Both the position numbers and the translations under genes were made by a program. The notes beneath the pieces are model-generated. The model was not told where the DNA came from. It made no database searches and was given only the letters and a program-made list of their open reading frames with translations. 64,000 nt of DNA from Escherichia phage AV109: sequence record OR352939.1; one strand, given 5' to 3'. Within the stretch, counting starts at the first letter, position 1, and every line of letters begins with the position of its first letter. Shown piece after piece: positions 498 to 48,293 of the stretch.

Positions 498-784
498 TAG
501 AACCTCATCTGAAATCCGTGTGATTTAACATTACCGCCATAAATGTCAGAGGTATTGACTTCACGTGCAGCGCTAGGGTCGATGTTAATATCATGGTTGA
601 GCTTAGTGATTGCTAGGGTATCACGACCATTGACGGTACGGAATTCTACAGGGCATACCACATCTGCATAAGCCTTAATAGATTCACGAGTAGGCTGTTT
701 GTCAGCAGGAACACCTTTACCGGCTTTAGAGAAAACAACTTCACAGAAATTTTTACGAGTATCGAAATAAGTGGTCATAAACAT
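497..784 (-). CDS. hypothetical protein (95 aa)
   Basis: ORF in same operon-like array. Confidence 0.4.
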   Translation of the reverse strand: MFMTTYFDTRKNFCEVVFSKAGKGVPADKQPTRESIKAYADVVCPVEFRTVNGRDTLAITKLNHDINIDPSAAREVNTSDIYGGNVKSHGFQMRF

Positions 785-822
785 AATATTTTCCTCAAGG
801 AGGCCGAAGCCTCCATTTAAGA

Positions 823-1188
823 TTAGATATCAAACTCGTTAAGAACTACATCAAAGATTGCTTCAAGATGTTCAGGTTTAGCTCGGTTACTCAGGATATG
901 ACGAATCCAAGTTTTAACTAAGAGTTTACGATTATCACCGTTCCAACAAGGATGAGTGCCTAAATCGCGTTCACGGAAATCATCATCTAAAGCGATTTTA
1001 AAGTTGGAACCTTCCTTAGTGATTGAAAGAGTGATACCGTTTTCAAATCGCATATAAACGTAGTTAGGAGTCATGCACTGCTCGATTTCACATACTGAAC
1101 CGTTTTCATGTTTCCACAAGCAAACCATGTCGATAGAACCAGCGATACCGTTAGAAACATATTTACGTTCGAAGTTGATGTAGTTCAT
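823..1188 (-). CDS. hypothetical protein (121 aa)
   Basis: ORF with GGAGAA Shine-Dalgarno upstream of ATG 1188 and early promoter upstream. Confidence 0.5.
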   Translation of the reverse strand: MNYINFERKYVSNGIAGSIDMVCLWKHENGSVCEIEQCMTPNYVYMRFENGITLSITKEGSNFKIALDDDFRERDLGTHPCWNGDNRKLLVKTWIRHILSNRAKPEHLEAIFDVVLNEFDI

Positions 1189-1229
1189 TTTATTCTCCGG
1201 TTGTTTTATTGATTAGGTGGTACAAGTCT

Positions 1230-1258
1230 ATAGTAACACATCCTACAGGAGAGTAAAC
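1230..1258 (-). promoter_or_regulatory. T4-type early promoter (GTTTAC -35, 17 nt spacer, TACTAT -10)
   Basis: minus-strand GTTTAC at 1258-1253 and TACTAT at 1235-1230. Confidence 0.5.
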
Positions 1259-1294
1259 ATCTTTTTAAACTTTTTCTGCCCTAAACGCACAAAA

Positions 1295-1312
1295 GGGAGA
1301 CCGAAGTCTCCC
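1295..1312 (-). terminator. intrinsic terminator hairpin GGGAGAC-UUCG-GUCUCCC followed by UUUUGUG
   Basis: perfect 7-bp stem with C(UUCG)G tetraloop on minus-strand RNA, U-tract 3' of stem, just after stop of 59-aa ORF. Confidence 0.65.
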
Positions 1313-1317
1313 TAAAA

Positions 1318-1497
1318 TTATGCAACAACCTTTCCAAAACGAGAAGCATCATCTCGAAGAACTGCACGTGCTCTGCGCATGATCTTCTCAACGGTTTGAT
1401 TAATACGAGAGTTCGACCCACGCTTGTATCCAGCGCGTTTAGAGGTACCATCAACTTTCTTTTCAACTGCTTTCTTTGCTTTAGCTTGTTTTGCCAT
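1318..1497 (-). CDS. small basic protein (59 aa), hypothetical; not in ORF track
   Basis: ATG 1497-1495 to TAA 1320-1318, translated by hand: MAKQAKAKKAVEKK...; followed by terminator hairpin. Confidence 0.4.
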   Translation of the reverse strand: MAKQAKAKKAVEKKVDGTSKRAGYKRGSNSRINQTVEKIMRRARAVLRDDASRFGKVVA

Positions 1498-1660
1498 TAT
1501 AAATTCTCTTTAAATGAAAATGCAGGACTTATTGACATTGCCTGCTCAAGCCCTCAATGGGAACATAGGTTTTGGATATTTAACGACAGGATAACCATAA
1601 ACCCGTCATCATACCTACCATGACTTACACAGCTAACCTTTTGCTGACGCATGATAGCAA

Positions 1661-1909
1661 TTATTTCAAAGTAATAACAAAATGACGTACTGCTTTACGA
1701 GCTGCAGAAGCCAAAGGCTTAGCATATTTCAGTTCATCTTTTGCTTCCAGTTCAGAAGCCAAAGCTGCCTGGACCGGGTTCAGATGTTTGAAATAACGCA
1801 AGATTTCCAGTGCTTCGGCTTCAACATCAATCGACGCGCCGTAGTTTTCATGACCATTATTCCATGCGTTTCGTTGCAGTTCAAGAGCGTGTTGTAATTG
1901 TTTAATCAT
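1661..1909 (-). CDS. rIII: rIII lysis-inhibition accessory protein (82 aa)
   Basis: size and position immediately downstream of gene 31 as in T4; sequence resembles remembered T4 rIII. Confidence 0.7.
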   Translation of the reverse strand: MIKQLQHALELQRNAWNNGHENYGASIDVEAEALEILRYFKHLNPVQAALASELEAKDELKYAKPLASAARKAVRHFVITLK

Positions 1910-2025
1910 TTTAAATTCTCAATTCGAGATAATATTTAGTAGCCACGTTCGTCTGAATTTCACCTTCTTTCGACAAGTCTCTCAGTTGTAGGCTACCGCT
2001 TAGAAGAGTGTTCTCTTCATATAGT

Positions 2026-2033
2026 TATTTATA
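2026..2033 (-). promoter_or_regulatory. late promoter motif TATAAATA upstream of rIII
   Basis: exact TATAAATA on minus strand directly after gene 31 stop. Confidence 0.35.
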
Positions 2034-2366
2034 TCACTTATAAAGACACGGAATAGCTTTATAGTGGCATGTTACGAATTTCTGTTTAATTTCTTTAGGT
2101 TGTTTAAGTCCCAAAGCCACAAATGGATGTGGAACATTTCGAATTTGTCCAACTGGTAGTGGAGTCAAATCACCGACTTCAACAAAACCTTCAGGAACAT
2201 CAGGACCTACAGAATGAACTACACATAGTTCAGGAACTTCACCTTGAACACGTTTACCAATCACAAGTCCTGATTCGGTAACTTCTTCATCACCTGCTTG
2301 AGCGGGTTCAGAAACCAGAATGACATATTCACCAACAGCACGAATTGGGAGTTGTACTTCAGACAT
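2034..2366 (-). CDS. 31: gp31 co-chaperonin (GroES analogue) for capsid protein folding
   Basis: near-identical to T4 gp31 ([34 protein letters not shown]...[11 protein letters not shown]). Confidence 0.92.
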
Positions 2367-2396
2367 CTTATTTCCTTGTTGTTTGACGATAGATTA

Positions 2397-2421
2397 ATAA
2401 TACCATACTATTCGTAAAGCA
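2397..2421 (-). promoter_or_regulatory. MotA-dependent middle promoter candidate (MotA box TGCTTTA, ~12 nt, TATTAT -10) for gene 31
   Basis: minus-strand ..atatGCTTTAcgaatagtatggTATTAT.. 30 nt upstream of gene 31 ATG. Confidence 0.4.
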
Positions 2422-2423
2422 TA

Positions 2424-2732
2424 TTACATAAGAAGCAAACGTTCTACCGGAGTACCATCAACCGAAATTACTTTATCAAGGCGGAAAGAACGCCACTGAC
2501 CTAACTCGGTATCGAATGCTCGAACTGATTCACGAGGTTCAGAACGAACTTCTGTTGATGGGTTACTATTTTCATATTTGACTTCAAGTTCGTCGCGGGA
2601 AGCAAACATCGTACGAACATCACCGTTAGCCTTTTCAAATACAACACAATGAACGCCTACAGACAGAATAGTTTTAATACATTCACGAAGAACCATAGTT
2701 TCTTGTTCAGTTAAAATCATATTATTCACCAC
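2424..2732 (-). CDS. hypothetical protein (102 aa)
   Basis: ORF between cd and 31. Confidence 0.45.
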   Translation of the reverse strand: MVNNMILTEQETMVLRECIKTILSVGVHCVVFEKANGDVRTMFASRDELEVKYENSNPSTEVRSEPRESVRAFDTELGQWRSFRLDKVISVDGTPVERLLLM

Positions 2733-3303
2733 AAAAGTTTCGAATTTGTTCCCAATTCAGAGAACGAAGATTATTACGAGAGTACTGAATTACTTCAATA
2801 CCGGCTTTTTTTAGAATGTCTGCCCAATTTTCAGGAGATCGGTCATATAATTCTGCATATACAACCTTTTTAATACCTGACTGTGTAATAGCTTTAGTGC
2901 AATCAGGACATGGAGAAAGCGTCGTATACAACGTAGCACCTTCAATAGAATTACCTTTACGAGCTGCAAACAAAATTGCATTCAATTCCGCATGGATTTC
3001 GTTATTAGCAGACCATGCACTATGAGCGGCCCGATGTTCTTTAGCCAAAACAAAATTATCCACCCGTCCAAATGCTGTAGTGCCTTCTTTATGCCCAGCA
3101 ACGATGACCGGGCTTGGTTTATTCTTCAACCAACCATTTTCGGATGCATGTTCGCAACAGTTTGTACCACCTGAAGGAGAGCCATTATAACCTGTAGAAA
3201 TAATGCGTCCATCTTTTTCAATGACGGCGCCAACTTTCCATGAACAACATTTTGATTCTTGAGAAATCAGATAAGCAATCTGAAGATATGTGCTAGCTTT
3301 CAT
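2722..3303 (-). CDS. cd: dCMP deaminase
   Basis: 193 aa; cytidine/dCMP deaminase zinc motifs HAELNAI and SPCPDC; T4 cd length and position. Confidence 0.9.
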   Translation of the reverse strand: MKASTYLQIAYLISQESKCCSWKVGAVIEKDGRIISTGYNGSPSGGTNCCEHASENGWLKNKPSPVIVAGHKEGTTAFGRVDNFVLAKEHRAAHSAWSANNEIHAELNAILFAARKGNSIEGATLYTTLSPCPDCTKAITQSGIKKVVYAELYDRSPENWADILKKAGIEVIQYSRNNLRSLNWEQIRNFCGE

Positions 3304-4295
3304 TATTGAACCTTATTAATATAAGTTAACAGCTCTTTAGTTTGTTCCCAACTGATGCACGCATCGGTAATGGAAACGCCATAGGACATATTATCAGAAA
3401 TTTTTTGATTTCCTTCATGTAGGAATGATTCTATCATAATTCCTTTGACCAAATCATTAGCTGCTAAATTTTTACCAATACCAATTTGATTGCTATAATG
3501 CCCATCAGCGTTTGCATGGCTACAGTCAACCATTACATAATGATTCAGACCTACTGCCCTTGCTTTGTTAGAAGCTTCTTGAATATCAGAAGAATGATAG
3601 TTCGGGCCGTTAGTCCCGCCACGCAATACGATATGCGTATTCTGATTACCTTCAGCTTCAACAATGCCTACAGTACCATCGACGTCCATACCCATATACC
3701 GATGAGGCCGCGCGGCACTATACATCGCGTCTGTAGCTACTTTAATAGAACCATTGGTTGCGTTCTTGAAGCCTACGCACATCGGTAGACCTGAAGCAAT
3801 TTCACGATGTGTCTGACTTTCAGTCGTACGGGCGCCAATAGCAACCCATGAGAAAATACCAGAAAGATACTTAATCGTGAATGGGTCTAATACTTCAGTT
3901 GCTAATGGAAGTCCCATACGTAGAAGTTTACGACACAATGTTCGTGCAACTATAAGACCGTGGTTCATATCAAAACTTCCGTCAAGATATGGATCATTTA
4001 CAAGACCTTTCCAACCTACGGTAGTTCGAGGCTTTTCAAAATAAACGCGCATCACTAACAGAACATTAGGAAGACGAGTTTGAAGTTCAGCCAGACGTTT
4101 GCCGTATTCAACAGCAGCAATAGGGTCATGAATTGAACAAGGACCTACAACAATAAGTTTGCGTGGGTCTTCACCGTTCATAATCGAATTAACTTGTTCG
4201 CGATGAGAAGCCACTTGTGATGCGTAAGCTTCCGACAAAGGAATAATCTCAGCCAGTTCTTTTGGAGAAATAAGTTTTCTGACGACAGGTAACAT
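3303..4295 (-). CDS. 3-deoxy-D-arabino-heptulosonate-7-phosphate (DAHP) synthase, class I alpha (AroG/AroF-like)
   Basis: 330 aa with hallmark blocks LIVVGPCSIHD, MRVYFEKPRTTVGWKGL, AIGARTTESQTHRE, CVGFKN, LRGG..PNY, GVSITDACI closely matching E. coli AroG; AAGGA SD before ATG 4295. Confidence 0.85.
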   Translation of the reverse strand: MLPVVRKLISPKELAEIIPLSEAYASQVASHREQVNSIMNGEDPRKLIVVGPCSIHDPIAAVEYGKRLAELQTRLPNVLLVMRVYFEKPRTTVGWKGLVNDPYLDGSFDMNHGLIVARTLCRKLLRMGLPLATEVLDPFTIKYLSGIFSWVAIGARTTESQTHREIASGLPMCVGFKNATNGSIKVATDAMYSAARPHRYMGMDVDGTVGIVEAEGNQNTHIVLRGGTNGPNYHSSDIQEASNKARAVGLNHYVMVDCSHANADGHYSNQIGIGKNLAANDLVKGIMIESFLHEGNQKISDNMSYGVSITDACISWEQTKELLTYINKVQ

Positions 4296-4415
4296 AACAA
4301 TCCTTAGGAGATATAAACAGATTCTGATTCAACAATACCTTTAACCGGATTAGACAGGCTAAGTTGGTAGTGCTCAGATTTATGACCATTCTCGATAGTA
4401 ATGAGATAGCTCTCA

Positions 4416-11684: not shown

Positions 11685-13949
11685 TTAAAGCTTACAAGCA
11701 GAACAATCTTCAGCTTTAGGTGTTTCTAATTCATAGTCATCTGTACCTGACCCATCACGAGTGTTATGATAGTAGAGGTTTTTTCCGCCAAAGTACCAGA
11801 AGTAAAGCAGATCGTCAAGCATTACTGACATTGGCACTTTACCTTTCTCAAATACTGCAGGGTCATAGTAAGTATTAGCAGAAGCAGATTGGCACACCCA
11901 TTTCAACATGATAGCAACTTGGGTCAAATAAGGTTTATTACCTTTCTTAGCAAGTTTCCACGCGTAGTCGTAAAGACTCATGTTATGTTCTATATTAGGA
12001 ACAACCTGTCGGAAGTTGCCTTCTTTAGATTCTTTAATACTTACAGGTCCACGAGGTGGTTCTATACCATTTGTGCTATTTGAGACTTGACTGCTTGACT
12101 CACAAGGCATGAGTGCAGACAACGTTGAGTTACGAATTCCATGTTCTTTGAGTTCAGCTCGAAGTTCTTCCCAGTCACAGACATAGTTCGGGGCTGCGAT
12201 TTGGTCAATCTTTTTATTGTACCAGTCGATAGGTAATTCGCCTCTAGACCATTTAGTGTCTGAATAATACTCACAAGGTCCTTTTTCTTTGGCGAGTTTG
12301 ATTGATGCTTTGATAAGGCCATATTGCAATCTCTCGAACAATTCATGGGTCAAATCGTTAGCGTCTTCATATGAAGCAAAGTTAGAAGCTAACCATGCAG
12401 CATAGTTCGTCACACCAACACCGAGATTTCGACGCTTTTTAGCTTTTAAAGCTTCTGGAACCGGATAATCTTGATAGTCTAACAGGTTATCAAGTGCACG
12501 TACTTGTACTTCAGCAAGTTCATTAATTTTATCTTGGTCTTGCCAATCAAATTTATCTAATACAAAAGCAGATAATGTGCATAAACCAATTTCAGCATCA
12601 GGACCATTCACATCATTAGTTGGAATAGCGATTTCACAACATAAGTTACTCTGACGAATTGGAGCTTTTTCACGAATAAACGGAGTGTAGTTATTCGTGT
12701 TATCAACAAACTGTGGATAAATTCGAGCAGTGCCAGAACGTTCAGTCATGAACAATTCAAAGAGTTCTAGTGCTTTGATTCTTTTCTTTCTGATTGTTGG
12801 GTCTTTTTCAGCTTTCTCATAAAGCTCACGGAATTTATCTTGATCTTCAAAGAACGAGTAGTATAGTTCACCTGACATTTCGTGAGGGCTAAATAAAGTA
12901 ATATAATCATTTTTACCAAGGCGTTCCATCATAAGGTCATTAATCTGAATTCCGTAGTCCATATGTCGAATACGGTTTTCATCCACGCCTTTGTTATTTT
13001 TCAGAACTAATAGGTTCTCTACTTCTAAGTGCCACATCGGATAATACGCTGTAGCAGCACCACCACGAATACCACCTTGAGAACAAGATTTTACTGCAGT
13101 TTGGAAATGTTTCCAGAATGGAATAACACCCGTATGTCGGACTTCACCCATACCGATCTTAGAACCTTCTGCACGAAGCATACCAACGTTGATACCGATA
13201 CCAGCTCGTTTAGAAATATATTCAATAATTGATGCTGAAGTTTTGTTAATAGATTTTAACGAATCACCGGCTTCAATAACTACACAACTAGAGAACTGGC
13301 GAGTCGGAGTGCGAGCACCTGCCATAATTGGAGTAGGCAATGAAACTTGATGAGTAGAAACGGCATCATAAAAACGAATAATATGTTTCAAACGGTCATG
13401 AGTTTCGTCTTGATGTAAGGCCATACCAATAGCCATGATAGCAAACTGTGGAGTTTCATAAATCTTCCCAGTTGTTTTATCTTTAACCAAGTATTTTTCT
13501 TTAAGCTGCATAGCACCAGCATAAGTCAGGTCAAAGTCTCGTTCATGTTTAATCTGTGAATCGAGATAAATGATTTCTTCTGCTGAATATTTAGACAACA
13601 ACTCAGGGTCATATTTGCCTTCATTAACACAGTAAGAAATATGGTCGATAAAAGCAGGCGGTTCAAACTGCCCATATACATCTTTACGAAGTGCAAACAT
13701 TAGCCCTTTGGCGGCGACATACTGATAATCGGGTTCTTCGACAGAAATCAAGTTAGCTGCAACTTTAATACAAATCTTCTGAATATCTTTGGTGCTCATC
13801 CCATCAACCAGATGAGTCTTAATTTCTTCATACAATTCGTATGGGTCGATTTGTGTTCCTTCACACTGCCAAGTTAATACTTGAATAATTTTCTGTGCAT
13901 CAAAATTTTGGGATACACCTGAATTTTTCACTACTTTAAAATTATACAT
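11685..13949 (-). CDS. nrdA: ribonucleotide reductase large subunit NrdA
   Basis: 754 aa, near-identical to remembered T4 NrdA, ends ..DCSACKL. Confidence 0.95.
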   Translation of the reverse strand: MYNFKVVKNSGVSQNFDAQKIIQVLTWQCEGTQIDPYELYEEIKTHLVDGMSTKDIQKICIKVAANLISVEEPDYQYVAAKGLMFALRKDVYGQFEPPAFIDHISYCVNEGKYDPELLSKYSAEEIIYLDSQIKHERDFDLTYAGAMQLKEKYLVKDKTTGKIYETPQFAIMAIGMALHQDETHDRLKHIIRFYDAVSTHQVSLPTPIMAGARTPTRQFSSCVVIEAGDSLKSINKTSASIIEYISKRAGIGINVGMLRAEGSKIGMGEVRHTGVIPFWKHFQTAVKSCSQGGIRGGAATAYYPMWHLEVENLLVLKNNKGVDENRIRHMDYGIQINDLMMERLGKNDYITLFSPHEMSGELYYSFFEDQDKFRELYEKAEKDPTIRKKRIKALELFELFMTERSGTARIYPQFVDNTNNYTPFIREKAPIRQSNLCCEIAIPTNDVNGPDAEIGLCTLSAFVLDKFDWQDQDKINELAEVQVRALDNLLDYQDYPVPEALKAKKRRNLGVGVTNYAAWLASNFASYEDANDLTHELFERLQYGLIKASIKLAKEKGPCEYYSDTKWSRGELPIDWYNKKIDQIAAPNYVCDWEELRAELKEHGIRNSTLSALMPCESSSQVSNSTNGIEPPRGPVSIKESKEGNFRQVVPNIEHNMSLYDYAWKLAKKGNKPYLTQVAIMLKWVCQSASANTYYDPAVFEKGKVPMSVMLDDLLYFWYFGGKNLYYHNTRDGSGTDDYELETPKAEDCSACKL

Positions 13950-14589
13950 AATAATTCCATGTTGGATAATTTGATGATTTTAGACGGCGTCTAACCGTTT
14001 GGGTGCTCATAGATAAAATTATTGACGCTTCATTTAATGTATCATATATTACGTCGTTTATAATTACTTTCTTTGCAAATGGATTCTTAGCTCCTATCAT
14101 AGCGTTAGAAATAGCTTGCTTAGTTGATTCTTTTAATGGGACTCCTTTAGAAATTTTTGTTTTAATTTTTATATTGTATTGTCCGCGTTTTTTACCTAAT
14201 AAAGAATTTCGTATCTTTTCTTTAGTCTCTTCAGATTTAACATGTCCTAGTTTGGAACGAGATATTTTATCTTTTGTTTTTTGGTCTAATTTTCGCCCTT
14301 TAAGCAAATCAACCATTTTTGCTCTAGCCCATCCAAATTCTTTATTATTTCTAGAACTCATTAAATTAACCGCGGTTGCTAAACCTAAATTGTTCGGATA
14401 TATTTTTAATAAAAGAAGATGAGCCAAATAATGTTCTGAATATGTTAATTTAACTAGATTGTATGACTCATTGGTGCCACCTAAACATTTTGGGATTATA
14501 TGATGCCATTCACCATCGATATCTTCAAAATTTCTTTCTTTATTTACTAAGTTTTTATATATTTTTAAATAATCCATAGTATAATCCAC
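13942..14589 (-). CDS. HNH homing endonuclease (Mob-like) with NUMOD repeats and C-terminal HTH
   Basis: HNH block WHHIIPKCLGGTNESYNLVKLT..EHYLAH; freestanding between td-side ORF and nrdA. Confidence 0.75.
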   Translation of the reverse strand: MDYTMDYLKIYKNLVNKERNFEDIDGEWHHIIPKCLGGTNESYNLVKLTYSEHYLAHLLLLKIYPNNLGLATAVNLMSSRNNKEFGWARAKMVDLLKGRKLDQKTKDKISRSKLGHVKSEETKEKIRNSLLGKKRGQYNIKIKTKISKGVPLKESTKQAISNAMIGAKNPFAKKVIINDVIYDTLNEASIILSMSTQTVRRRLKSSNYPTWNYYV

Positions 14590-14909: not shown

Positions 14910-15221
14910 TTATACCGCCATTTTAGCTTTGATAGCTGGATGTGATTCGTAATTTTTAAGAACGAAATCAGAATGTGTCATCGTTCCGGTAACCCAGTCC
15001 ATTTGGATTTTTGTAGGCCAATTCTCAAAATTACTAGGCCAATTAATTTCAAGAGAACATAACTCTTTAGGTTCACGACGAAGAACTTCTTTGCATTGTT
15101 CTACATGATTGCTGTAGATATGCGTGTTGCCGCCTGAGAACACTAAATCACCTGGGATAAGGTTACACATCTTCGCTACAATATGTGTCAAGGCAGCGTA
15201 CGAGGCGATGTTGAACGGTAG
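14910..15221 (-). CDS. td: thymidylate synthase, exon 2
   Basis: encodes LPFNIASYA..HIVAKMCNLIPGD..SGGNTHIY..; exon 2 begins one codon after the intron-terminal G of AUG, as in T4. Confidence 0.9.
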   Translation of the reverse strand, partial: LPFNIASYAALTHIVAKMCNLIPGDLVFSGGNTHIYSNHVEQCKEVLRREPKELCSLEINWPSNFENWPTKIQMDWVTGTMTHSDFVLKNYESHPAIKAKMAV

Positions 15222-15368
15222 CATTATGTTCAGATAAGGTCGTTAATCTTATCCCGGAATTATATCCAGCTGCATGTCACCATGCAGAGCAGACTATATC
15301 TCCAACTTGTTAAAGCAAGTTGTCTATCGTTTCGAGTCACTTGACCCTACTCCCTAAAGGGATAGTCG

Positions 15369-16112
15369 TTAGGCATTTATGTAGAACCAATTCCACTTAT
15401 CAGATTTTACACGGTAAGTAACTAATCCTGATGAAATTTCAAAATGTCTAGCCGCATCGGCTGCACATTCAAAAATAATCCCATCGCATGAAATCTTTTT
15501 GATGTTAGCTGGCTTTTTGCCTTTCATCTTTTCAGATAGTTTAGTTTTAGTTTTTTCTGAATGTTTGTGATTAAAGAACGGGTTATTTTCACCTGAACGT
15601 TTTCGGCACTTTCCACAAGTATCGGCCGAAGATGGTATGCGAACACCGCATTTACAAAACTTGTGGTTTTCTGGATTCCATCGGCCATTTTTACTTCCGT
15701 GTTTACCATAAAGAGCTTTCCGACCATCAGGACCAAGCTTAAGCATCTTAGCTTTAACAGTTTCAGCTCGTTTCTTAGCAATTTCTTCTTTTAATGGATG
15801 ATTTGAAAGCACATCGCCAAAAGACGCATCAGCAATATTATATCCATTAATTTTAGAATTTAGCTCTTTAATCCAAAAATTTTCTCGTTCAATAATCAAA
15901 TCTTTCTCATATGGAATTTCTTCCAGTATAGAGCATTCAAAAACATTACCATGTTTATTAAAAGACCTTTGAAATTTTATAGAAGAGTGAACACCGTTTT
16001 CAAGGTCTTTAAAATGTCTCTTCCATCTTTTCTCAAAATCTTTAGCACTTCCAACATACACTTTACCGTTTAAAGTGTTTTTAATCTGATAAATTCCGCT
16101 TTTCATAAACAC
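15369..16112 (-). CDS. I-TevI: intron-encoded GIY-YIG homing endonuclease I-TevI
   Basis: near-identical to remembered T4 I-TevI (KSGIYQIKNTLN.KVYVGSAKDFEKRWKRHFKDLE ... DAARHF.ISSGLVTYRVKSDKWNWFYINA); true start probably the third codon (MKSG). Confidence 0.9.
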   Translation of the reverse strand: MFMKSGIYQIKNTLNGKVYVGSAKDFEKRWKRHFKDLENGVHSSIKFQRSFNKHGNVFECSILEEIPYEKDLIIERENFWIKELNSKINGYNIADASFGDVLSNHPLKEEIAKKRAETVKAKMLKLGPDGRKALYGKHGSKNGRWNPENHKFCKCGVRIPSSADTCGKCRKRSGENNPFFNHKHSEKTKTKLSEKMKGKKPANIKKISCDGIIFECAADAARHFEISSGLVTYRVKSDKWNWFYINA

Positions 16113-40864: not shown

Positions 40865-43078
40865 TTATTTGGCTGCTTCCACAGCCTTCATGAATTTAAC
40901 GATTTGAGCGACCTGTTCTTTTGAAAGAGTACCACGTCGTCCCATGTATTCTGACACAATATGATAATTGGTTTCGAATTCAATAACCATTTTATCATCA
41001 TTATCGTAAGCATTATCTTTAAGCTTATCGAAAATTTTAGCACACAATTCTAACTTCTTATTCAGGTCTGTATTAGTAGCACCTGCGAATCGATTCCATC
41101 CCCAACGATTATTTACTGTTGAGAGTTTTGCAAAATCTTTACTGATTTCTTTGTTTTTAGAGCTAAAATACTTACTAAGGAAGTTAAGCTCTTCATTACG
41201 AGTAATATGATTCAAATAAGGTTGAGCTCTACGACTTGGTGATACATACTCATCATAATCCGCTTTATCAATTAGCGTAATATAGTCATTAATTGATTTT
41301 TCGAACAAGCATTCTACTTCACCAAGTTTACGAACTTTCTTAGCAATCTGTGGACGAACTACAGTGAACTCTTTAATACCCGACAAATCAGCAATACGGG
41401 TCAAGAAATTGGAGTCATAGTTCAACCAACCTTTATCTGCGTCAAGACATTCAGCATTAGAACGATTACGAACTATAGCATAACCTTGGATTTCATCTGC
41501 TTCACTTGCCGGAATAAAGAGATCTTCTGATACCCAAACATCGTTTTCATTCTTAAAGAATCGATGAGCACTTGGCGATTTAGGACGAGGCTCATTAGTC
41601 CGTTTCTTGACTTCAATCCATGGCTTAACGATTTGTAAAAGCTCTGAAGTCTTGTACATGTTAATGTTGTCGCCATCAAAGATAACTTTAAGGCGTTCCA
41701 GAAGTTTCATTGCATCTTCGTCTGTAGGGTCAACGAATAGTATGCTTTTACCAAAACCGCGCGGAACTTTACCAGTTAATTTAACATCGTCTTTAGACAT
41801 TTCAATTGAATTAAGAGCTCGCATTAATGGAACGCGTCCCTTAACGTCGTCAATAACAATTTCAACATTTTTAATGTTAATGCCAATCAGACTGTTAATT
41901 GAAATAGTCGCCGATGAGCTACCACTTTCACGAATACGACGAAGACGAGGGGATTCAACTATATCGTATACTACGCCAAGATTACACCACTCAGGCCCCA
42001 TTTTAAAACGTTTGTACAACTCAGAATAAGTTAGTTGTTCTTTAGAGTATTTCAGTGATTCAATATTAGACCCGGCCTTTTCCATGTATTTACGAGCGGT
42101 ATAGCCAAGAGAATCAATTTCACGGAACACATGACGTGGGTATTTACAATCAATCCATTTCTTAGAATCTTCAGCGAACAATTTAGCATCGATTTCTGCA
42201 ACGCGTTTATGGATATTTGCTACTGTACGTTTATCAAATGACAATGCTTCACGAGACGGGGCTACATCTAGTTCACCCATAGGGAATTTAATATAAGCTG
42301 TAGTGCATCGCGTCATCATCCATGTTTGTTCTTTAATAACACTTCCGATTGGATATACAATACCACCATAAACAGCCATGATATTACCACGTTCACCCCA
42401 TGGAGCTTCCTTGGCCAAATATACATCGTCAAATTCTGGGAAGTATTTAATATCTTTAACACCACGAACTTCTGCAATATCACCTAGAGGACGCATAACA
42501 TAAGCAATTTCGGATGCGAACTTTTCAAAATCTTCTGGGTTAACAGGCACAACTACTTCAACGCCGGTCCGGTCATCAGGACCCATCTTATCTACGAAGG
42601 TTGGCTTAATCTGTGGACCCGTGTCATCTTGGTAGATTACGTAACCACGAACTTCACCGTTGTGATAAGACGTAAGGTTAAACGTATCGGTATATGCTAA
42701 TGGAGCTTTAGAGCCGAGTCCGAATCCACCAATGAAATCGTTACTCGATGTTTTAGTTGAAGCAAAATATGAGTTATAGATTCCTGGCTCTTTGTCATTA
42801 CCTCGAATGGTGAAATCACTCATACCCGGTCCAAAATCACGAACTACAAAACGTGGGTCTAAACGACCTGGAGCCTGAACAATAAACTTATCAGTGCAAC
42901 CATTAAGAATTTGCCCATCAATACAGTTTGTGATTAATTCACGTACACAAGCCAATTCTTTGTTTGTATAAAGGTCATTAGACAAAATCTTATAAACTTT
43001 GCTATTGCCTTGAATAGTAAATGCTGTGCTCTTACCGCCTGAACCAATAATCGTTTCTTTAGCCGTTTCGATAATCAT
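40865..43078 (-). CDS. rIIA: rIIA protein (GHKL-ATPase-like N-terminal domain)
   Basis: 737 aa; position upstream of rIIB; N-terminal ATPase-like motifs. Confidence 0.9.
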   Translation of the reverse strand: MIIETAKETIIGSGGKSTAFTIQGNSKVYKILSNDLYTNKELACVRELITNCIDGQILNGCTDKFIVQAPGRLDPRFVVRDFGPGMSDFTIRGNDKEPGIYNSYFASTKTSSNDFIGGFGLGSKAPLAYTDTFNLTSYHNGEVRGYVIYQDDTGPQIKPTFVDKMGPDDRTGVEVVVPVNPEDFEKFASEIAYVMRPLGDIAEVRGVKDIKYFPEFDDVYLAKEAPWGERGNIMAVYGGIVYPIGSVIKEQTWMMTRCTTAYIKFPMGELDVAPSREALSFDKRTVANIHKRVAEIDAKLFAEDSKKWIDCKYPRHVFREIDSLGYTARKYMEKAGSNIESLKYSKEQLTYSELYKRFKMGPEWCNLGVVYDIVESPRLRRIRESGSSSATISINSLIGINIKNVEIVIDDVKGRVPLMRALNSIEMSKDDVKLTGKVPRGFGKSILFVDPTDEDAMKLLERLKVIFDGDNINMYKTSELLQIVKPWIEVKKRTNEPRPKSPSAHRFFKNENDVWVSEDLFIPASEADEIQGYAIVRNRSNAECLDADKGWLNYDSNFLTRIADLSGIKEFTVVRPQIAKKVRKLGEVECLFEKSINDYITLIDKADYDEYVSPSRRAQPYLNHITRNEELNFLSKYFSSKNKEISKDFAKLSTVNNRWGWNRFAGATNTDLNKKLELCAKIFDKLKDNAYDNDDKMVIEFETNYHIVSEYMGRRGTLSKEQVAQIVKFMKAVEAAK

Positions 43079-43383: not shown

Positions 43384-44484
43384 TTACGCTGTGAAGATTT
43401 TATCCCACATCGCAACAACTGCATCTCGATTATACTTCTTCCATACTGCTTCAGCACGTTTAACTCGAGCTTCGTATGTGTCAGTGAATTCTAATACAGC
43501 TTTTGTGTAAAGCGCAACTACTTCTTTCTTAGGAGTAGAGGAATCAATTTCTACACGCACAGTATCTGGGTCGTATTCAAATGTCGCATGAGGATAATCC
43601 TTAAAAACTAACTGGATTACAGGGACACCTTTAGAGATGGCTTCAATAGAACTATTCTCTACCGTACCTGTGTCAGGACACGTATTAATAAGTGCTTTAG
43701 CTGTTTTAAGACGTTCCATGATTTCACTATGTGGAGCATCAATAATAACAGGATACTTAGCCGGTGGTGCCCATTTACTAGGACAGTATCCTGCACCATT
43801 TTCGCCTAGTGCTTTAATCGCTTCAAGAGCAACATCAGTGCGACGCATTTTAGTGTCATAACGTTGGGCACTAATAATCAAATCAGTTGCTGGGAGAACT
43901 TCTGGCTTTTCGGTCAAACAAATAACCGGGTAGTCATCATGTTCAAATAATGGATTTTCACGCCAGTAATCATAATCAATGCTATCAGTAAGAGCTGAAG
44001 TCATATGGCAATATTTACGTTCAAATTCACGGAATGCTTTAGTAGGAGCATAGCTCTTACCACCGTATTTGTGGGTAAGAATAGTTTGTTTCCAAATTTC
44101 TACAATACCGCGAGATACAGGCTCAAATGGAGTTGCCATAAAATTTCTATGAACACTGGATAAACCGGCATCTTTAATTGCGTTAACAGTTAGTTTAGTC
44201 GGTTCCATAGTAACAACAAAATCGTATTCATGGATGCCGGCTAGTTCAACAATCTTACGAGCCATAGTATAACTCATACCTAGACTGAATTTAGTCAGAT
44301 GACCAACAGGATGATGATTAACTTTCCAGTCACCAAACGTGTCATTATCAAAGCCGATATAATCAATATCAGCACCGATGGACACAAGATATTTCAACAC
44401 ATTTAAATGTACTGCTTCAAGGCCACCTTGTACACGGTCAGGATTAAATGGGACTGCACGAGATGGGATAAACATAACTTTCAT
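43384..44484 (-). CDS. putative GT-B fold glycosyltransferase (366 aa)
   Basis: C-terminal block GTVENSSIEAISKGVPVI resembles the GT-B/GT4 E-x7-E nucleotide-sugar binding motif; located between gene 39 and rIIA. Confidence 0.45.
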   Translation of the reverse strand: MKVMFIPSRAVPFNPDRVQGGLEAVHLNVLKYLVSIGADIDYIGFDNDTFGDWKVNHHPVGHLTKFSLGMSYTMARKIVELAGIHEYDFVVTMEPTKLTVNAIKDAGLSSVHRNFMATPFEPVSRGIVEIWKQTILTHKYGGKSYAPTKAFREFERKYCHMTSALTDSIDYDYWRENPLFEHDDYPVICLTEKPEVLPATDLIISAQRYDTKMRRTDVALEAIKALGENGAGYCPSKWAPPAKYPVIIDAPHSEIMERLKTAKALINTCPDTGTVENSSIEAISKGVPVIQLVFKDYPHATFEYDPDTVRVEIDSSTPKKEVVALYTKAVLEFTDTYEARVKRAEAVWKKYNRDAVVAMWDKIFTA

Positions 44485-44510: not shown

Positions 44511-44528
44511 AAGCTCCCGAAGGAGCTT
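44511..44528 (-). terminator. hairpin AAGCUCC-UUCG-GGAGCUU overlapping HNH gene stop
   Basis: 7-bp stem, UUCG loop, followed by CAUUUUAAUUUU. Confidence 0.5.
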
Positions 44529-45339
44529 AGGACATCCAACACATTTTATAACCTTTGCAGGTTCTGTTAGGATTATTTAATGCTTTCAATATATTAGAAG
44601 ACCCTATATCTAAATACTCCCTTAATTCATAAAGATAGTTAAAATCAATAGTTTCACCTGTTTTTACACTTGTGATTCTTATAGGCCTTCTTTCATATTT
44701 AGATTTATACAACTCTCTAGTCTTAGCTTTAGTTTCTTCTGACCTAGGAGTGTATGGTTTAAATCCTTTTGTTTTAAATGTTTCCATTCTTGATTTAGTT
44801 ATTTTATCCTGGTGTTCTTTTGTTTTTACAGGTGCTTTTCGCCCATTCTCCCAAGATAACTTGTTGGCCTGTATTATTTTATCTATTGCTTCTTGCGTAT
44901 GAGTTTTACCATAAAATGGATTTAATTCGCCTATACGTTGTGAAGCAATATGTGACATTAATTCTCTTGTTGCTTTAGTATGTTTTTTACCTTTAAATGG
45001 ATTGCCATTTTTAGCAATCCATTCTTTCATAAATCTAGAGTGCTCTTTAGAGAATTCTTGTTTAAGCCAATCATAATCTCTAGAATTTCTAGCTCCCATG
45101 TAAAAAGCTCTAATAGCCATAAGCATAGAACGGTTCTTATGAATTTTATAAAGCAATAAATGGGCGATAAAATGCTCTCTAGGGGTCATTTTAACTAGAT
45201 TTGATTTAGCATTACTCCCACCCATAGATTTAGGCAAAATATGGTGAGTTTCAGTATAATTAGGAATAGTGCTGCGGTTTTTAGCCGCAGCGATAAGTTT
45301 ATCATAAATTTTACGATAATTCATTATCCTAGCATCCAA
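44527..45339 (-). CDS. HNH homing endonuclease (Mob-like) with NUMOD repeats
   Basis: HNH block THHILPKSMGGSNAKSNLVKMT..EHFIAH; NUMOD-like repeats; freestanding immediately downstream of gene 39. Confidence 0.75.
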   Translation of the reverse strand: MDARIMNYRKIYDKLIAAAKNRSTIPNYTETHHILPKSMGGSNAKSNLVKMTPREHFIAHLLLYKIHKNRSMLMAIRAFYMGARNSRDYDWLKQEFSKEHSRFMKEWIAKNGNPFKGKKHTKATRELMSHIASQRIGELNPFYGKTHTQEAIDKIIQANKLSWENGRKAPVKTKEHQDKITKSRMETFKTKGFKPYTPRSEETKAKTRELYKSKYERRPIRITSVKTGETIDFNYLYELREYLDIGSSNILKALNNPNRTCKGYKMCWMS

Positions 45340-47162
45340 TCTTTACGGAGTTCAGGGTCGTTACCCATGAGCATTTCAAATAGTTCTTTCCAATTTTCAG
45401 GAAGTTTAACTACGTCGTACACAGGGTTTTGAATCATTTCTTTATATTCATCCCGCTGAAGTGAGCCCAATCCCTTGATGTATCGAATACTATGCTTAGG
45501 CAGTGTATCTTTAACTTCTTCATACTCAGCTACAGTATAAAACCATTTTTGAGTTTTGCCAATTTGTGCAATAATTACAGGCGTTTTAACAAAGCGAATA
45601 CGTCCTTGTTCAAACAATTCAGGCCAATTACTAAAGAAAGCAAGCAAAGCCGGATAAATACTTCCAAGGCCGTCATGATCGGCATCGGTCATAATTGCAA
45701 TATTACGGTAGTTCGTATTCTCTGCCTTTTCACCAAGAATAAGACCCGTGATAGCACAGATATCAAAGAGCTCTTTGTTCTTCATCATATCGGCATATGA
45801 CATACCCCAGCTATTCATCACCTTACCACGTAATGGGAATCCGCCGTGTAGTTCACGGTCACGAACATCAATGAGATAACCAATTGCCGAATCACCTTCT
45901 GTTAAAAACAATGTCGTATCTGCATCTTTACCACATTGGTTAGCTTTAATATGCTTATGAACCTTAGCTTTAGTTGCCTTTTTAGCTGCTTTAGTTTCTG
46001 CAGCCTTTTCTGCTGCCAATTTACGAGCTAATGCGGCTTCAATTATAGGCATTAAAACTGCTTCAGAATTCAAAATATTTTTTGCCAATTTTTTTGTATC
46101 TAATTTAATATGCGTCCGAATTTCGCCATAAGGACTTGTTAAACGCTCTTTGGTTTGGGAATCAAAACGAAGGTTCTTCATTCCACGAACGAACATTAAG
46201 AGAGTGAGACATTCCTTGATTCGCGCTTTAGTCACGTCGATTTTATATTTGCGTTTAATAGCCGGAATTAATTCTTCGCTAATGTCGTCCATCACACATT
46301 CAATGTGATGACCACCGTTTTTGGTATGGATGTTATTCACATAAGTTAAATGACGGAAGCCATCTGGTGACCGTCCAATGGCAATAGAGCATCCGTCTTG
46401 TTCTTGAATGATGGTCTCTTCATCAAATTGTTTAGCAAACTTCTTAAAGTTACCTTGAATCTTTTTGCCATTAAATTTAAATTCAATACCAGGATAAACG
46501 ACCGCCAATGTTTGGAGCCGGTCTATAGTAATATCTTGGTATATTTTTTCAAATTGATTCATTTCAAAATGTGAGAAATCAGGAATAAACTCGACCTTAG
46601 TACCGTTGTTTTTAGACGGCTTAGATTTCCAAGAAATATTATCAGCGTTATTAGAACAATTAACGGTCAATTCATTTTTACCATCTGAAGTAGTGCCAAC
46701 AAAAGAGACAGAAAAAATATTTGTTAATGAAGAACCGACACCGTTTTGTCCACCCGTAACACGTTCTTTGTCGTCACCAAAGTTGCCACCGGCTTTTGTA
46801 CGTGTCCACGCCGCAACTGGTCCTGGAATTTCTTCTCCTTCAGGAGTAATAACTGTTTCTTGAGGAATACCTCGACCATTATCTTCAACAGTCACTTTAT
46901 TAGAATTTAAATCAATACTAACGGAAATTTTATTAGCATATTTGAAATTGGTTCGAATAGCTTCGTCTACTGAGTTGTCAATAATTTCATCAATTAATTT
47001 GAGAACACCTGCAACATATTTAACCTTTTTAAATTCACCGAATAGGAAACGTTCTTGTTCTTCATTGGCAACACTTCCAATATACATGCCAGGACGCTTC
47101 AAACAATGCTCTTTATCAGATAGCATTTCAATTTTATTATCAATCATTAGATTTTCTCTCAA
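45324..47162 (-). CDS. 39: DNA topoisomerase II large subunit gp39 (GyrB-like ATPase), unsplit
   Basis: 612 aa single ORF covering the regions that are split into genes 39 and 60 in T4; GHKL ATPase and TOPRIM motifs. Confidence 0.92.
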   Translation of the reverse strand: MRENLMIDNKIEMLSDKEHCLKRPGMYIGSVANEEQERFLFGEFKKVKYVAGVLKLIDEIIDNSVDEAIRTNFKYANKISVSIDLNSNKVTVEDNGRGIPQETVITPEGEEIPGPVAAWTRTKAGGNFGDDKERVTGGQNGVGSSLTNIFSVSFVGTTSDGKNELTVNCSNNADNISWKSKPSKNNGTKVEFIPDFSHFEMNQFEKIYQDITIDRLQTLAVVYPGIEFKFNGKKIQGNFKKFAKQFDEETIIQEQDGCSIAIGRSPDGFRHLTYVNNIHTKNGGHHIECVMDDISEELIPAIKRKYKIDVTKARIKECLTLLMFVRGMKNLRFDSQTKERLTSPYGEIRTHIKLDTKKLAKNILNSEAVLMPIIEAALARKLAAEKAAETKAAKKATKAKVHKHIKANQCGKDADTTLFLTEGDSAIGYLIDVRDRELHGGFPLRGKVMNSWGMSYADMMKNKELFDICAITGLILGEKAENTNYRNIAIMTDADHDGLGSIYPALLAFFSNWPELFEQGRIRFVKTPVIIAQIGKTQKWFYTVAEYEEVKDTLPKHSIRYIKGLGSLQRDEYKEMIQNPVYDVVKLPENWKELFEMLMGNDPELRKDWMLG

Positions 47163-47823
47163 ATTGCATGACTATATTTTTGTATGAACCTTCCGGAAAT
47201 CCACGTTTAATGCTTTCTTTAGCAAATTTCCCAACCTTTGGTTTATCCAATTCTAACCATAATTTATATAAAGCAGATTCATATTCCCATACAGGACTTT
47301 TACGATTTTTAAGCCCACACTTTATAAGCGCTTCCTTTGTATGTTTCTTATTATAAAATGGATTGTTTTTGCCACTCATTGCTTTAGAATGTTCCGGGCG
47401 CTTAATTCCATACATCGGATTAAGATCGCCTTTCTTGATAACGGATTGTAGTTCAATAGTTTCTTCAGAGTGATTGTGTCCATAAAATGGATTTAACTCT
47501 TTTGAAACATCCATACCAAAGCACCCATCGACTGTGGCATAAGACATGTTGAAAAATTTTTCAGATTTAACCACATTATGCAATTTCTGGTAATACAACT
47601 CACAAAACGTCGCTTCTTCCCGTGTATCAAATTCGCCAATAATACATGAATCAAATAAATGAGGATTATCTTTTATCTCTTTATCATAAATTTGTTTATA
47701 TTTTTTCGACTTTACCGTACCATGATAGTGATTGTTTGTATGTTTATCAAGATAAGTAGACCCTATATAAAACGGTGGCAACTTATCGCCTGTGTATATT
47801 GTTAAGTATGTTATGTATTTCAT
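47140..47823 (-). CDS. GIY-YIG homing endonuclease (Seg-like) with NUMOD repeats
   Basis: N-terminal YLTIYTG..FYIGST motif; repeated NPFYG.xHSEET / NPMYG / NPFYNKKHT modules; no obvious SD. Confidence 0.7.
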   Translation of the reverse strand: MKYITYLTIYTGDKLPPFYIGSTYLDKHTNNHYHGTVKSKKYKQIYDKEIKDNPHLFDSCIIGEFDTREEATFCELYYQKLHNVVKSEKFFNMSYATVDGCFGMDVSKELNPFYGHNHSEETIELQSVIKKGDLNPMYGIKRPEHSKAMSGKNNPFYNKKHTKEALIKCGLKNRKSPVWEYESALYKLWLELDKPKVGKFAKESIKRGFPEGSYKNIVMQFERKSND

Positions 47824-47856
47824 AAAGGTATTCTATCATCCGAAATCTAAAGCAAA

Positions 47857-47872
47857 AAGGGCCGAAGCCCTT
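47857..47872 (-). terminator. hairpin AAGGGC-UUCG-GCCCUU + UUUUG overlapping stop of upstream ORF
   Basis: 6-bp stem, UUCG loop, U-tract. Confidence 0.5.
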
Positions 47873-48293
47873 ATTTAAATTTAATTTTCTGAAGTGCATC
47901 AATTGCAGCCAAACGCCCTTGTTCACTTTTAACTGTAACGACCACATCGCCTGATACGATCACCGAACCATCAACAAATTCTATAGAGCCTTTTTTGAAA
48001 TCGACAGCTGTATCTGGTTCCGGAACTTCTTCAAAGAATTTAAATTCTGCACCATAAAGCAGAATATCACCTTGCATACTAATGATTGTACGTCCAGGTC
48101 CATCGGTTTCAGCGGCAATAATCGAAACGCCGTAACCAATCATCTCTTCCACAATAAAATCTTTGGACAATAAAGTAGTATGCAGATTAGTATTAAGACG
48201 TTTACCAGTCGTATTAAGAATTCTCAAGAAATTATCTTCCTGTCCTTTGATAATACGATATTTCTTACCAACTTCAAAACCTTTAAAAGCCAT
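47871..48293 (-). CDS. hypothetical protein (140 aa)
   Basis: ORF upstream of GIY-YIG gene. Confidence 0.45.
   Translation of the reverse strand: MAFKGFEVGKKYRIIKGQEDNFLRILNTTGKRLNTNLHTTLLSKDFIVEEMIGYGVSIIAAETDGPGRTIISMQGDILLYGAEFKFFEEVPEPDTAVDFKKGSIEFVDGSVIVSGDVVVTVKSEQGRLAAIDALQKIKFK

Follow-up and report, generated by a model that had tools for sequence, protein, structure and literature searches.

We examined gene 39, the gene for the large subunit of DNA topoisomerase II, in a 64,000-nucleotide (nt) stretch of Escherichia phage AV109 (OR352939.1), referred to below as the window. We consider it probable that two independent, promoter-less, freestanding homing endonuclease cassettes are lodged at the two ends of an intact Mosigvirus gene 39, one encoding a Mob-type HNH protein downstream of the gene and the other a GIY-YIG-like protein upstream of it. 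With more reserve, we lean toward the view that the downstream element, a MobA-related HNH nuclease joined to another DNA-binding module, recently took ∼1.3 kb of Mosigvirus DNA, including the start of a candidate arabinosyl-hydroxymethylcytosine (arabinosyl-hmC) transferase gene, into Tequatrovirus. Coordinates are those of the 64-kb window, in which a position equals that in the record of Escherichia phage AV114 (OR352944.1) minus 32000. AV114, an RB69-like Mosigvirus, came from Danish pig waste; the locus is 100% identical to it across 5.4 kb, and an alignment of 8.4 kb holds two mismatches.

An earlier note on this DNA had described an unsplit gene 39 bracketed by two freestanding homing endonuclease genes, and that description is supported. 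All three minus-strand open reading frames (ORFs) lie where it had placed them. Its limits were those of maximal ORFs opening at TTG, which hold as ORFs, while the actual starts are ATG codons, assigned because the conserved N termini of homologs and the GenBank annotation of AV114 agree. Gene 39 (45324-47147, minus strand) is indeed a single ORF, of 607 amino acids (aa) from its ATG rather than 612, and its product begins MIDNK. It is flanked by the HNH gene (44527-45324, minus strand; 265 aa, beginning MNYRK) and by the gene for the GIY-like protein (47140-47823, minus strand; 227 aa). Gene 39 overlaps both neighbors: 1 nt is common to its stop and the HNH start (TAATG), and 8 nt are common to its start and the stop of the GIY-like ORF (ATGATTGA). 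As the note had claimed, gene 39 lacks the T4-type interruption: aligned with T4, gp39 of the window is colinear with T4 gp39 plus gp60, with 76% and 85% aa identity, respectively. Profile matches to gp39 include PHROG 543 (E = 6e-284) and Pfam HATPase_c, DNA_gyraseB, and TOPRIM_C. The two flanking ORFs have more than 100 homologs each, with E values down to 1e-150, and are therefore not chance ORFs.

Alignment of four genomes, with the junctions read on the sense strand, delimited the HNH cassette as 800 bp (44533-45332, minus strand) that HNH-less Mosigvirus genomes do not have. A 6-nt direct repeat, CATCCA, borders it on both sides (44533-44538 and 45333-45338) and in the sense direction reads TGGATG, the W-M codons of gp39. 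The gp39 C terminus is ..LRKEWMS-stop in HNH-less genomes versus ..LRKDWMLG-stop in genomes that carry the HNH gene (HNH+). The new terminal codons, CTA GGA TAA (L-G-stop), are supplied by the 5′ end of the cassette, which also provides a GGA Shine-Dalgarno-like motif; the stop among these codons overlaps the HNH ATG. At the other end the HNH ORF, finishing in ..KGYKMCWMS-stop, reuses the original gene 39 end, TGG ATG TCC TAA. An intrinsic terminator hairpin recovered by a terminator scan (AAGCTCC-TTCG-GGAGCTT plus a T-run; 44511-44528, minus strand) stands directly after gene 39 in HNH-less phages and after the HNH gene in the window. The cassette is technically intragenic, inserted a few codons ahead of the stop, and belongs to the gene 39 transcription unit without a promoter of its own. 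Several freestanding endonuclease genes of T4 are likewise promoter-less, lie within a host transcription unit, overlap the ORF upstream, and carry flanking sequence along by co-conversion (Edgell et al. 2010). A sigma-70 promoter scan returned 16 sites against 15.8 expected in shuffled sequence and was left unused.

The downstream protein is soundly assigned by sequence to the Mob-type HNH endonucleases, in agreement with the earlier note. It matches PHROG 655 "homing endonuclease" (E = 3e-56) and carries two NUMOD3 motifs above the Pfam threshold, arranged between an N-terminal HNH nuclease domain and a C-terminal DNA-binding region. Single-sequence Pfam scores were 17.4 bits for HNH (cutoff, 21.4) and 17.6 bits for HNH_5 (cutoff, 27.5), and several relatives carry PF01844. 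When the protein was aligned with 36 relatives, the invariant residues E25, H27, H28, G36, N42, H51, H55, and L58 were all present and the catalytic motif was intact. Its C-terminal region is conserved only in gene-39-associated homologs (P0122 to P0124). Residues 1 to 71 are 61% identical (E = 1e-24) to the intact MobA of phage CJY920, whereas the ∼190 residues after aa 71 have no significant similarity to MobA. The possibility that the gene is a relocated T4 mobA was rejected, the nuclease domain alone being in common. A sequence search of the PDB gave nothing useful, the sole match being McrA (E = 0.38). The GC content of the HNH gene is 0.31 to 0.32 versus 0.36 to 0.42 in gene 39.

The upstream ORF lies between the control region of gene 39 and the gene 39 ribosome-binding site. 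This control region (47829-47872, minus strand), recognized from its sequence and a terminator scan, is common to phages that lack the GIY-like gene. It contains an intrinsic terminator hairpin (47857-47872, minus strand), a MotA-box-like sequence, TTTGCTTTA (within 47829-47872, minus strand), and a -10-like TAGAAT (47830-47835, minus strand) that ends 6 nt ahead of the ATG of the GIY-like gene, which has no Shine-Dalgarno sequence. In APCEc01, a GIY-less phage, an identical control sequence precedes the gene 39 ribosome-binding site, and at the equivalent site of fPS-90 a predicted middle promoter is annotated. We infer that these elements form a promoter. More speculatively, a transcript from it would begin at about the ATG of the GIY-like gene, so that the endonuclease might be poorly translated with gene 39 still served.

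Whether the upstream gene belongs to the GIY-YIG family, as the earlier note had it, depends on the method: sequence models did not support the assignment, and the predicted fold did. Scores fell below the cutoffs for Pfam GIY-YIG (E = 0.07; 13.8 bits against 22.6) and for SegE_GIY-YIG (E = 0.04; 14.7 bits against 25). Neither a PDB sequence search nor a profile search (27-sequence N-domain profile) returned a GIY-YIG chain, none of 120 homologs among the matches listed carried a precomputed GIY-YIG domain, and BLAST found no similarity to the I-TevI ortholog of the same window. An AlphaFold2 model built from 40 homologs had a predicted local distance difference test (pLDDT) score of 89 overall and 91 to 98 in the N-terminal 100 residues, and its best Foldseek matches were the I-TevI catalytic domain (probability 0.99, template modeling [TM] score 0.63); the best non-I-TevI match had a probability of 0.06. 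The family alignment has invariant ..TIY10, Y19-I20-G21, E75, and N92. In a weak hhalign alignment (E = 0.11, 38 columns) of the N-domain profile with an I-TevI sequence verified against PDB 1MK0, E75 fell on I-TevI E75. Both tyrosines, Glu75, and Asn92 are retained in the window protein, which is laid out as an N-terminal GIY-YIG domain (aa 1 to ∼100), three NUMOD3 motifs, and a C-terminal helical domain. We conclude that the model identifies it as a divergent, Seg-like endonuclease of GIY-YIG fold with putative catalytic competence. A ∼121-aa ORF 64 to 66% identical to its nuclease domain (aa 2 to 123) was also found at an unrelated locus in many Tequatroviruses, for example at ∼35 to 38 kb in G28, G4507, and fPS-90; it appears without the DNA-binding half and may be a truncated relative.

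Both genes are strongly polymorphic among close relatives, and all four occupancy states were found in Mosigvirus. The two results that the note had named as refuting it, flanking ORFs without catalytic residues and flanking genes identical in all relatives, were not obtained. AV114, AV115, AV116, and AV118 have both genes; HX01, JM10, and G2285 have only the GIY-like gene; phi25-307, AV111, p000v, phiC120, and others have only the HNH gene; APCEc01, RB69, and most other Mosigviruses have neither. In a census in which a phage collection was probed with the two uninterrupted junction sequences, the 3′ (HNH) junction was uninterrupted in 135 of 162 matching records, the other 27 agreeing in number with the HNH+ records that tblastn recovered, and the 5′ (GIY) junction was uninterrupted in 146 of 157. 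Within Mosigvirus the HNH gene occurs in ∼12% of records and the GIY-like gene in ∼5%, and the two occur together only in the four AV phages, which come from one study. Among HNH copies, that of ECO111 5-P (OR844765.1, 150514-151307) aligns in two pieces with a 1-nt length difference.

Gene 39 of the window is, by sequence comparison, a three-part mosaic whose blocks track the two cassettes. Its first part (nt 1 to 1113; 46035-47147, minus strand) is 98% identical to that of HX01, which carries the GIY-like gene (GIY+), and 71% identical to those of GIY-less phi25-307, APCEc01, and RB69. The core (nt 1114 to 1679; 45469-46034, minus strand) is 97 to 98% identical in all Mosigviruses. The last 145 nt (nt 1680 to 1824; 45324-45468, minus strand) are 100% identical to HNH+ phi25-307 and 99.3% identical to the HNH+ Tequatrovirus fPS-90, versus 80 to 81% to HNH-less HX01 and APCEc01. 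Since the tract identities follow cassette presence, each endonuclease gene is linked to a foreign block of gene 39 on its own side. Outside the GIY+ Mosigviruses, the sequences closest to the GIY-linked tract are from Dhakavirus (77 to 78.5%), and a search of the phage collection for a donor of this 1.1-kb tract returned nothing above 80% outside GIY+ Mosigvirus records. In eight complete Mosigvirus records the GIY-like element is 98 to 100% alike and has one common right-hand breakpoint. We also considered that the gp39 N terminus MIDNKIEM.. might be an immunity variant made by the endonuclease and rejected this idea, as that N terminus is native to the GIY-less Dhakavirus FB. The RB69 record (NC_004928.1, 3663-5483) differs from all other Mosigviruses at the gp39 N terminus, reading MIKNEIRVLSDVEPLLRNRMVCILVLSAKE where they read ...SDVEHIKKRSGMYIGSSAKE; this probably reflects sequencing errors in an old record, in the form of compensating frameshifts.

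The HNH cassette also crosses a genus boundary. By tblastn, copies with at least 98.9% aa identity were present in 27 records, 8 of them from six Tequatrovirus phages (fPS-90, F1, FN, BYEP01, CJY920, and FL12) that come from Finland, China, and Denmark and from different laboratories. In every Tequatrovirus carrier the HNH copy lies directly 3′ of the topoisomerase large-subunit gene, and at the nucleotide level the cassette is 99 to 100% identical between Mosigvirus and the six phages. Between fPS-90 and AV114 or phi25-307, identity is 98 to 100% over ∼1.3 kb, from about nt 1410 of gene 39 to 67 nt past the HNH gene; across the rest of gene 39, fPS-90 and AV114 are 55 to 94% identical per 50-nt window, mostly 60 to 85%.

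What lies beyond the HNH stop gives the transfer a direction. There the Tequatrovirus insert continues into the Mosigvirus terminator, the intergenic spacer, and the first 43 to 49 nt of ORF003c, corresponding to 44436-44484 (minus strand) of the window, where these 49 nt open a 366-aa ORF (43384-44484, minus strand). This ORF is the ortholog of RB69 ORF003c (351 of 366 aa identical), a candidate arabinosyl-hmC transferase gene (Thomas et al. 2018). All Mosigviruses examined, endonuclease-less RB69 included, have ORF003c at full length, and it was not present at this locus in the Tequatrovirus genomes compared. The hitchhiking ORF003c start and terminator therefore indicate transfer from Mosigvirus to Tequatrovirus. 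At the right-hand junction the insert meets the recipient across a 6-nt microhomology, CTGACC, followed by a 27- to 33-nt remnant of the recipient's own gene 39 end (CTTCGYAAAGAATGGATGAGCCARTAG). Because all Tequatrovirus copies examined have this same junction, their sequences indicate a single founding event. The left ends of the tracts differ, lying at ∼400 nt in fPS-90, ∼330 to 340 nt in F1 and BYEP01, and ∼190 to 240 nt in CJY920, and the BYEP01 tract holds a T4-like patch; such variation fits later spread by recombination or homing within Tequatrovirus. For the GIY-like element, horizontal spread of this kind was not shown, the nearest outside copy being 76% identical in aa sequence.

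These junctions suggest how the cassette may have entered. Founding entry would have used homology on the gene 39 side and the CTGACC microhomology on the other, where the join would fall back on microhomology because no homology exists on that side. We regard entry by one-sided homology plus a 6-nt microhomology, followed by ordinary homing, as having a somewhat better than even chance of being correct. The retained remnant places the initiating break farther upstream than position -33 relative to the stop, and a putative HNH target would have to include sequence upstream of -33, because carrier genomes would otherwise still be cleavable. The conserved 18-mer at the insertion point, CTTCGYAAAGAATGGATG, was tried as the whole HNH target and rejected as sufficient because HNH+ Tequatroviruses hold an intact copy in the remnant. 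Illegitimate double-strand-break repair was reportedly described, by Parker and colleagues in 1999, in intron and endonuclease acquisition with limited homology. The Tequatrovirus junction resembles such repair in its homology on one side, 6-nt microhomology on the other, and retained recipient remnant; unlike an experimental cross, it is a natural, cross-genus case reconstructed from genomes.

Homologs elsewhere occupy corresponding positions. Two metagenomic homologs of the HNH protein, 45% identical in aa sequence over their full length, lie directly after a gene 39 of 606 to 607 aa in T4-like contigs. In Shewanella phage Thanatos-1 (MT457552.1, 89018-89761), a homolog 30% identical over 99% of its length abuts the topoisomerase large-subunit gene, which hints that the association with the gene end is old. 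The DNA of Thanatos-1 is pentose modified. Orthologs of the GIY-like gene (65 to 76% aa identity) lie directly upstream of gene 39 in the Dhakaviruses Bp7 and IME281 and in Tegunavirus TG1, and others do so in Klebsiella, Enterobacter, Providencia, and Proteus phages. Bp7, which is GIY+, differs from GIY-less FB by a clean ∼680-bp indel with flanks 98 to 100% identical. On one contig (L015 from SRR21291448, 1144-1851), the slot immediately upstream of gene 39 is taken by a 235-aa ORF that has an Endonuclease_7 domain, and an HNH homolog 45% identical to that of the window follows the gene. By these comparisons both gene 39 ends act as endonuclease landing sites of long standing, and this single metagenomic contig suggests that the upstream slot is used by different nuclease families. 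Endonuclease families are reported to swap at one locus in the pairs mobC/segH and mobE/hef (Sandegren et al. 2005, as described in a citing paper); the GIY-like gene of the window and the Endonuclease_7 gene of the contig would be a swap of the same type.

The closest known counterparts are T4 enzymes. Like T4 MobE, the HNH gene is a freestanding, promoter-less cassette at a gene boundary that overlaps the upstream ORF. MobE, which lies between nrdA and nrdB, is described as mobilizing flanking DNA by gene conversion, with trans-homing shown experimentally; it differs from the window protein in its target gene and in its demonstrated activity. The GIY-like protein shares with T4 SegA to SegG and with I-TevI an N-terminal nuclease of GIY-YIG fold, a NUMOD3-type linker, and a C-terminal helical DNA-binding domain, and it shares with the Seg enzymes a freestanding intergenic position and apparent co-conversion of a neighboring essential gene. 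Unlike them, its nuclease domain scores below the Pfam GIY-YIG and SegE cutoffs and lacks an invariant equivalent of Arg27. Some genome records label these genes "homing endonuclease," and the phiC120 genome paper mentions a NUMOD3-containing homing endonuclease gene only in passing; the literature searched held no paper analyzing either gene. Both are new, uncharacterized members of a well-known kind.

Taken with what is known of such enzymes, the locus can be explained as follows. The HNH cassette replaces the gp39 C terminus and would be cotranscribed with gene 39. In a mixed infection each enzyme would cut or nick gene 39 alleles that have no endonuclease gene, close to where its own cassette is inserted, and recombination-dependent repair would copy the cassette together with adjacent gene 39 sequence from the carrier genome, whose allele would be protected by the interrupted site and the diverged flank. 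The founding Tequatrovirus event would be repair of such a break with one-sided homology, and the cassette would then spread among Tequatroviruses, leaving different left tract ends. Tracts of the kind co-conversion leaves were found at both ends, 145 nt linked to the HNH gene and 1,113 nt linked to the GIY-like gene, as well as in Tequatrovirus, at ∼190 to 400 nt with variable ends.

Several observations weigh against this account of two mobile cassettes. Cleavage, target sites, and expression of both enzymes, together with immunity of the carrier alleles, are extrapolated from knowledge of T4 Seg and Mob enzymes. Least certain is whether the GIY-like enzyme is active: its family alignment has no invariant Arg at the I-TevI R27 position, which is occupied by Lys in the window protein, by Lys or Arg in most of the family, and by Asn or Ser in a few, so the enzyme, also below the Pfam threshold, could be catalytically altered or dead. 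The GIY-like element looks like one acquisition in Mosigvirus, for which recombination with an unsampled phage is an equally good explanation, and a one-sided tract of 1.1 kb is long for co-conversion. HNH+ and HNH-less Mosigvirus genomes are near-identical outside the tracts, a pattern that vertical inheritance with loss could also produce. The HNH+ Tequatroviruses retain their own gene 39 end intact, and the target must then be more than the insertion-point sequence. Finally, both AV118 genes (OR352948.1, 74889-75684 and 77503-78182) show 1-nt length differences and align as two pieces; early decay or homopolymer sequencing errors may account for these and for the difference in ECO111 5-P.

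From these points one could argue that one or both ORFs are inactive, decaying relics and that the mosaicism arose by ordinary recombination and deletion. In its favor are the missing Arg and the subthreshold Pfam scores of the GIY-like domain, the apparently single entry of the GIY-like gene with its long flank, the AV118 copies, and the state of T4 mobA, itself a pseudogene. We consider this explanation unlikely. Both ORFs are intact in AV114, residues are strongly conserved in both families, and divergent homologs of each family hold the same position relative to gene 39. The HNH cassette is near-identical across two genera whose gene 39 sequences are far more divergent, and the one-sided-homology junction together with several tract ends would hardly arise unless a break had been targeted to that place.

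It is still less probable that the endonucleases are kept mainly for the benefit of the phage, through marker exclusion or modulation of gene 39 expression. Both genes do belong to the transcription unit of gene 39, their start or stop codons overlapping those of that gene, the GIY lineage is tied to the gene 39 start across many genera, and Seg enzymes are known to cause marker exclusion in T-even phages (Edgell et al. 2010). The low Mosigvirus frequencies given above argue against a strong benefit, however, and sequence does not separate this explanation from plain selfish homing.

The earlier note had further read the arrangement as an intermediate state of endonuclease invasion that may bear on how the split of T4 genes 39 and 60 arose, and here the comparison contradicts it. 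T4 has gene 39, a decayed mobA, 60.1, and gene 60 with its translational bypass, and the unsplit gene is the default in T4-like phages, RB69 and most Tequatrovirus included. The T4 split has been traced to one mobile element composed of MobA and the bypass and inserted at nt 1399 to 1419 of the unsplit gene; it deleted 55 to 75 nt, added C- and N-terminal extensions, is protected by a 50-nt insert, and invaded several phage clades independently (Manning and Atkins 2022, bioRxiv 10.1101/2022.08.31.505936). This element is also treated in Edgell et al. 2010 and Bonocora et al. 2011, as cited in that work. The HNH cassette of the window is inserted at about nt 1815, in the last codons and ∼400 nt downstream of the MobA site, which lies in the Toprim domain, and the alignment of its gene 39 to T4 revealed no split, extensions, or 50-nt bypass. 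In CJY920 (PQ349265.1, GenBank UNVERIFIED, 685-4341), both elements occur together: a 516-aa gp39, an intact 272-aa MobA, and gene 60 with an exact 30-mer of the T4 bypass, with a terminal 265-aa HNH gene directly after gene 60. Because the HNH gene coexists there with the full split, at another site and with another DNA-binding part, the two are independent elements and not stages of one process.

The two elements do resemble one another. Both are Mob-type HNH genes on the topoisomerase large-subunit gene, with nuclease domains 61% identical, and each enters the coding sequence and brings replacement codons (C-terminal ones in the HNH cassette) while the host protein stays functional. Each is also polymorphic in presence and recently mobile. 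They differ in that the window HNH protein has an unrelated DNA-binding region of NUMOD3 type and causes no gene split. Given the different insertion sites, the unrelated sequence after aa 71, the coexistence in CJY920, and the commonness of unsplit gene 39 without any endonuclease gene, an intermediate on the path to the T4 39/mobA/60 split with bypassing can be set aside as highly improbable. The more modest link that remains is that related HNH nuclease domains, on different DNA-binding modules, occupy two sites of the same gene. The locus adds nothing on the origin of the 39/60 split, which the MobA/bypass element already explains.

Around the cassettes, the minus-strand order is rIIA (40865-43078), rIIA.1, the 366-aa ORF, the HNH ORF, gene 39, the GIY-like ORF, and goF/cef/motB-type genes. 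Two further patches of divergence were seen. Within the 366-aa ORF, a patch at ∼43950-44260 is 77 to 88% identical to HX01, phi25-307, and APCEc01, with flanks of 93 to 100%, and is by its sequence another local mosaic. A 140-aa ORF of PHROG 622 (47871-48293, minus strand) adjoins the GIY-like gene on its upstream side; its patch at ∼48100-48200 is 78 to 91% identical to three Mosigvirus comparators and, since it diverges from GIY+ HX01 as well, is tied to neither endonuclease gene. The window also holds two further endonuclease genes, which brings its total to at least four. One is a Mob-type HNH ORF of 215 aa (13942-14589, minus strand) that abuts nrdA (11685-13949). The other, at 15369-16112 (minus strand), encodes a near-identical I-TevI ortholog (MKSGIYQIKNTLNGKVYVGSAKDFEKRWKRHF...); it adjoins a td exon (14910-15224), and a td group I intron is therefore implied.

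Mosaicism in T4-like phages stems in large part from freestanding homing endonucleases, of which only a handful have been studied. The locus offers a natural experiment in which one essential gene is attacked at each end by a different nuclease family, and sequenced phage isolates are at hand for all four occupancy states. The most interesting element is the datable transfer from Mosigvirus to Tequatrovirus, a neat, testable example rather than a surprise: the cassette appears to have been captured soon after its move from RB69-like into T4-like phages, and its diagnostic junction can be assayed by PCR. The questions it opens concern endonuclease breaks and exchange between genera with different DNA hypermodifications, the establishment of a cassette with one-sided homology, and the retargeting of HNH nucleases by swaps of DNA-binding modules. 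RB69 is reported to be unable to recombine with T4 and other RB phages, and the arabinosyl-hmC in its DNA has been held responsible (Thomas et al. 2018). Should the endonuclease have made the break, two related nucleases would be attacking two different sites of one essential gene, and the transfer would represent natural, datable, homing-driven gene flow across this supposed recombination barrier.

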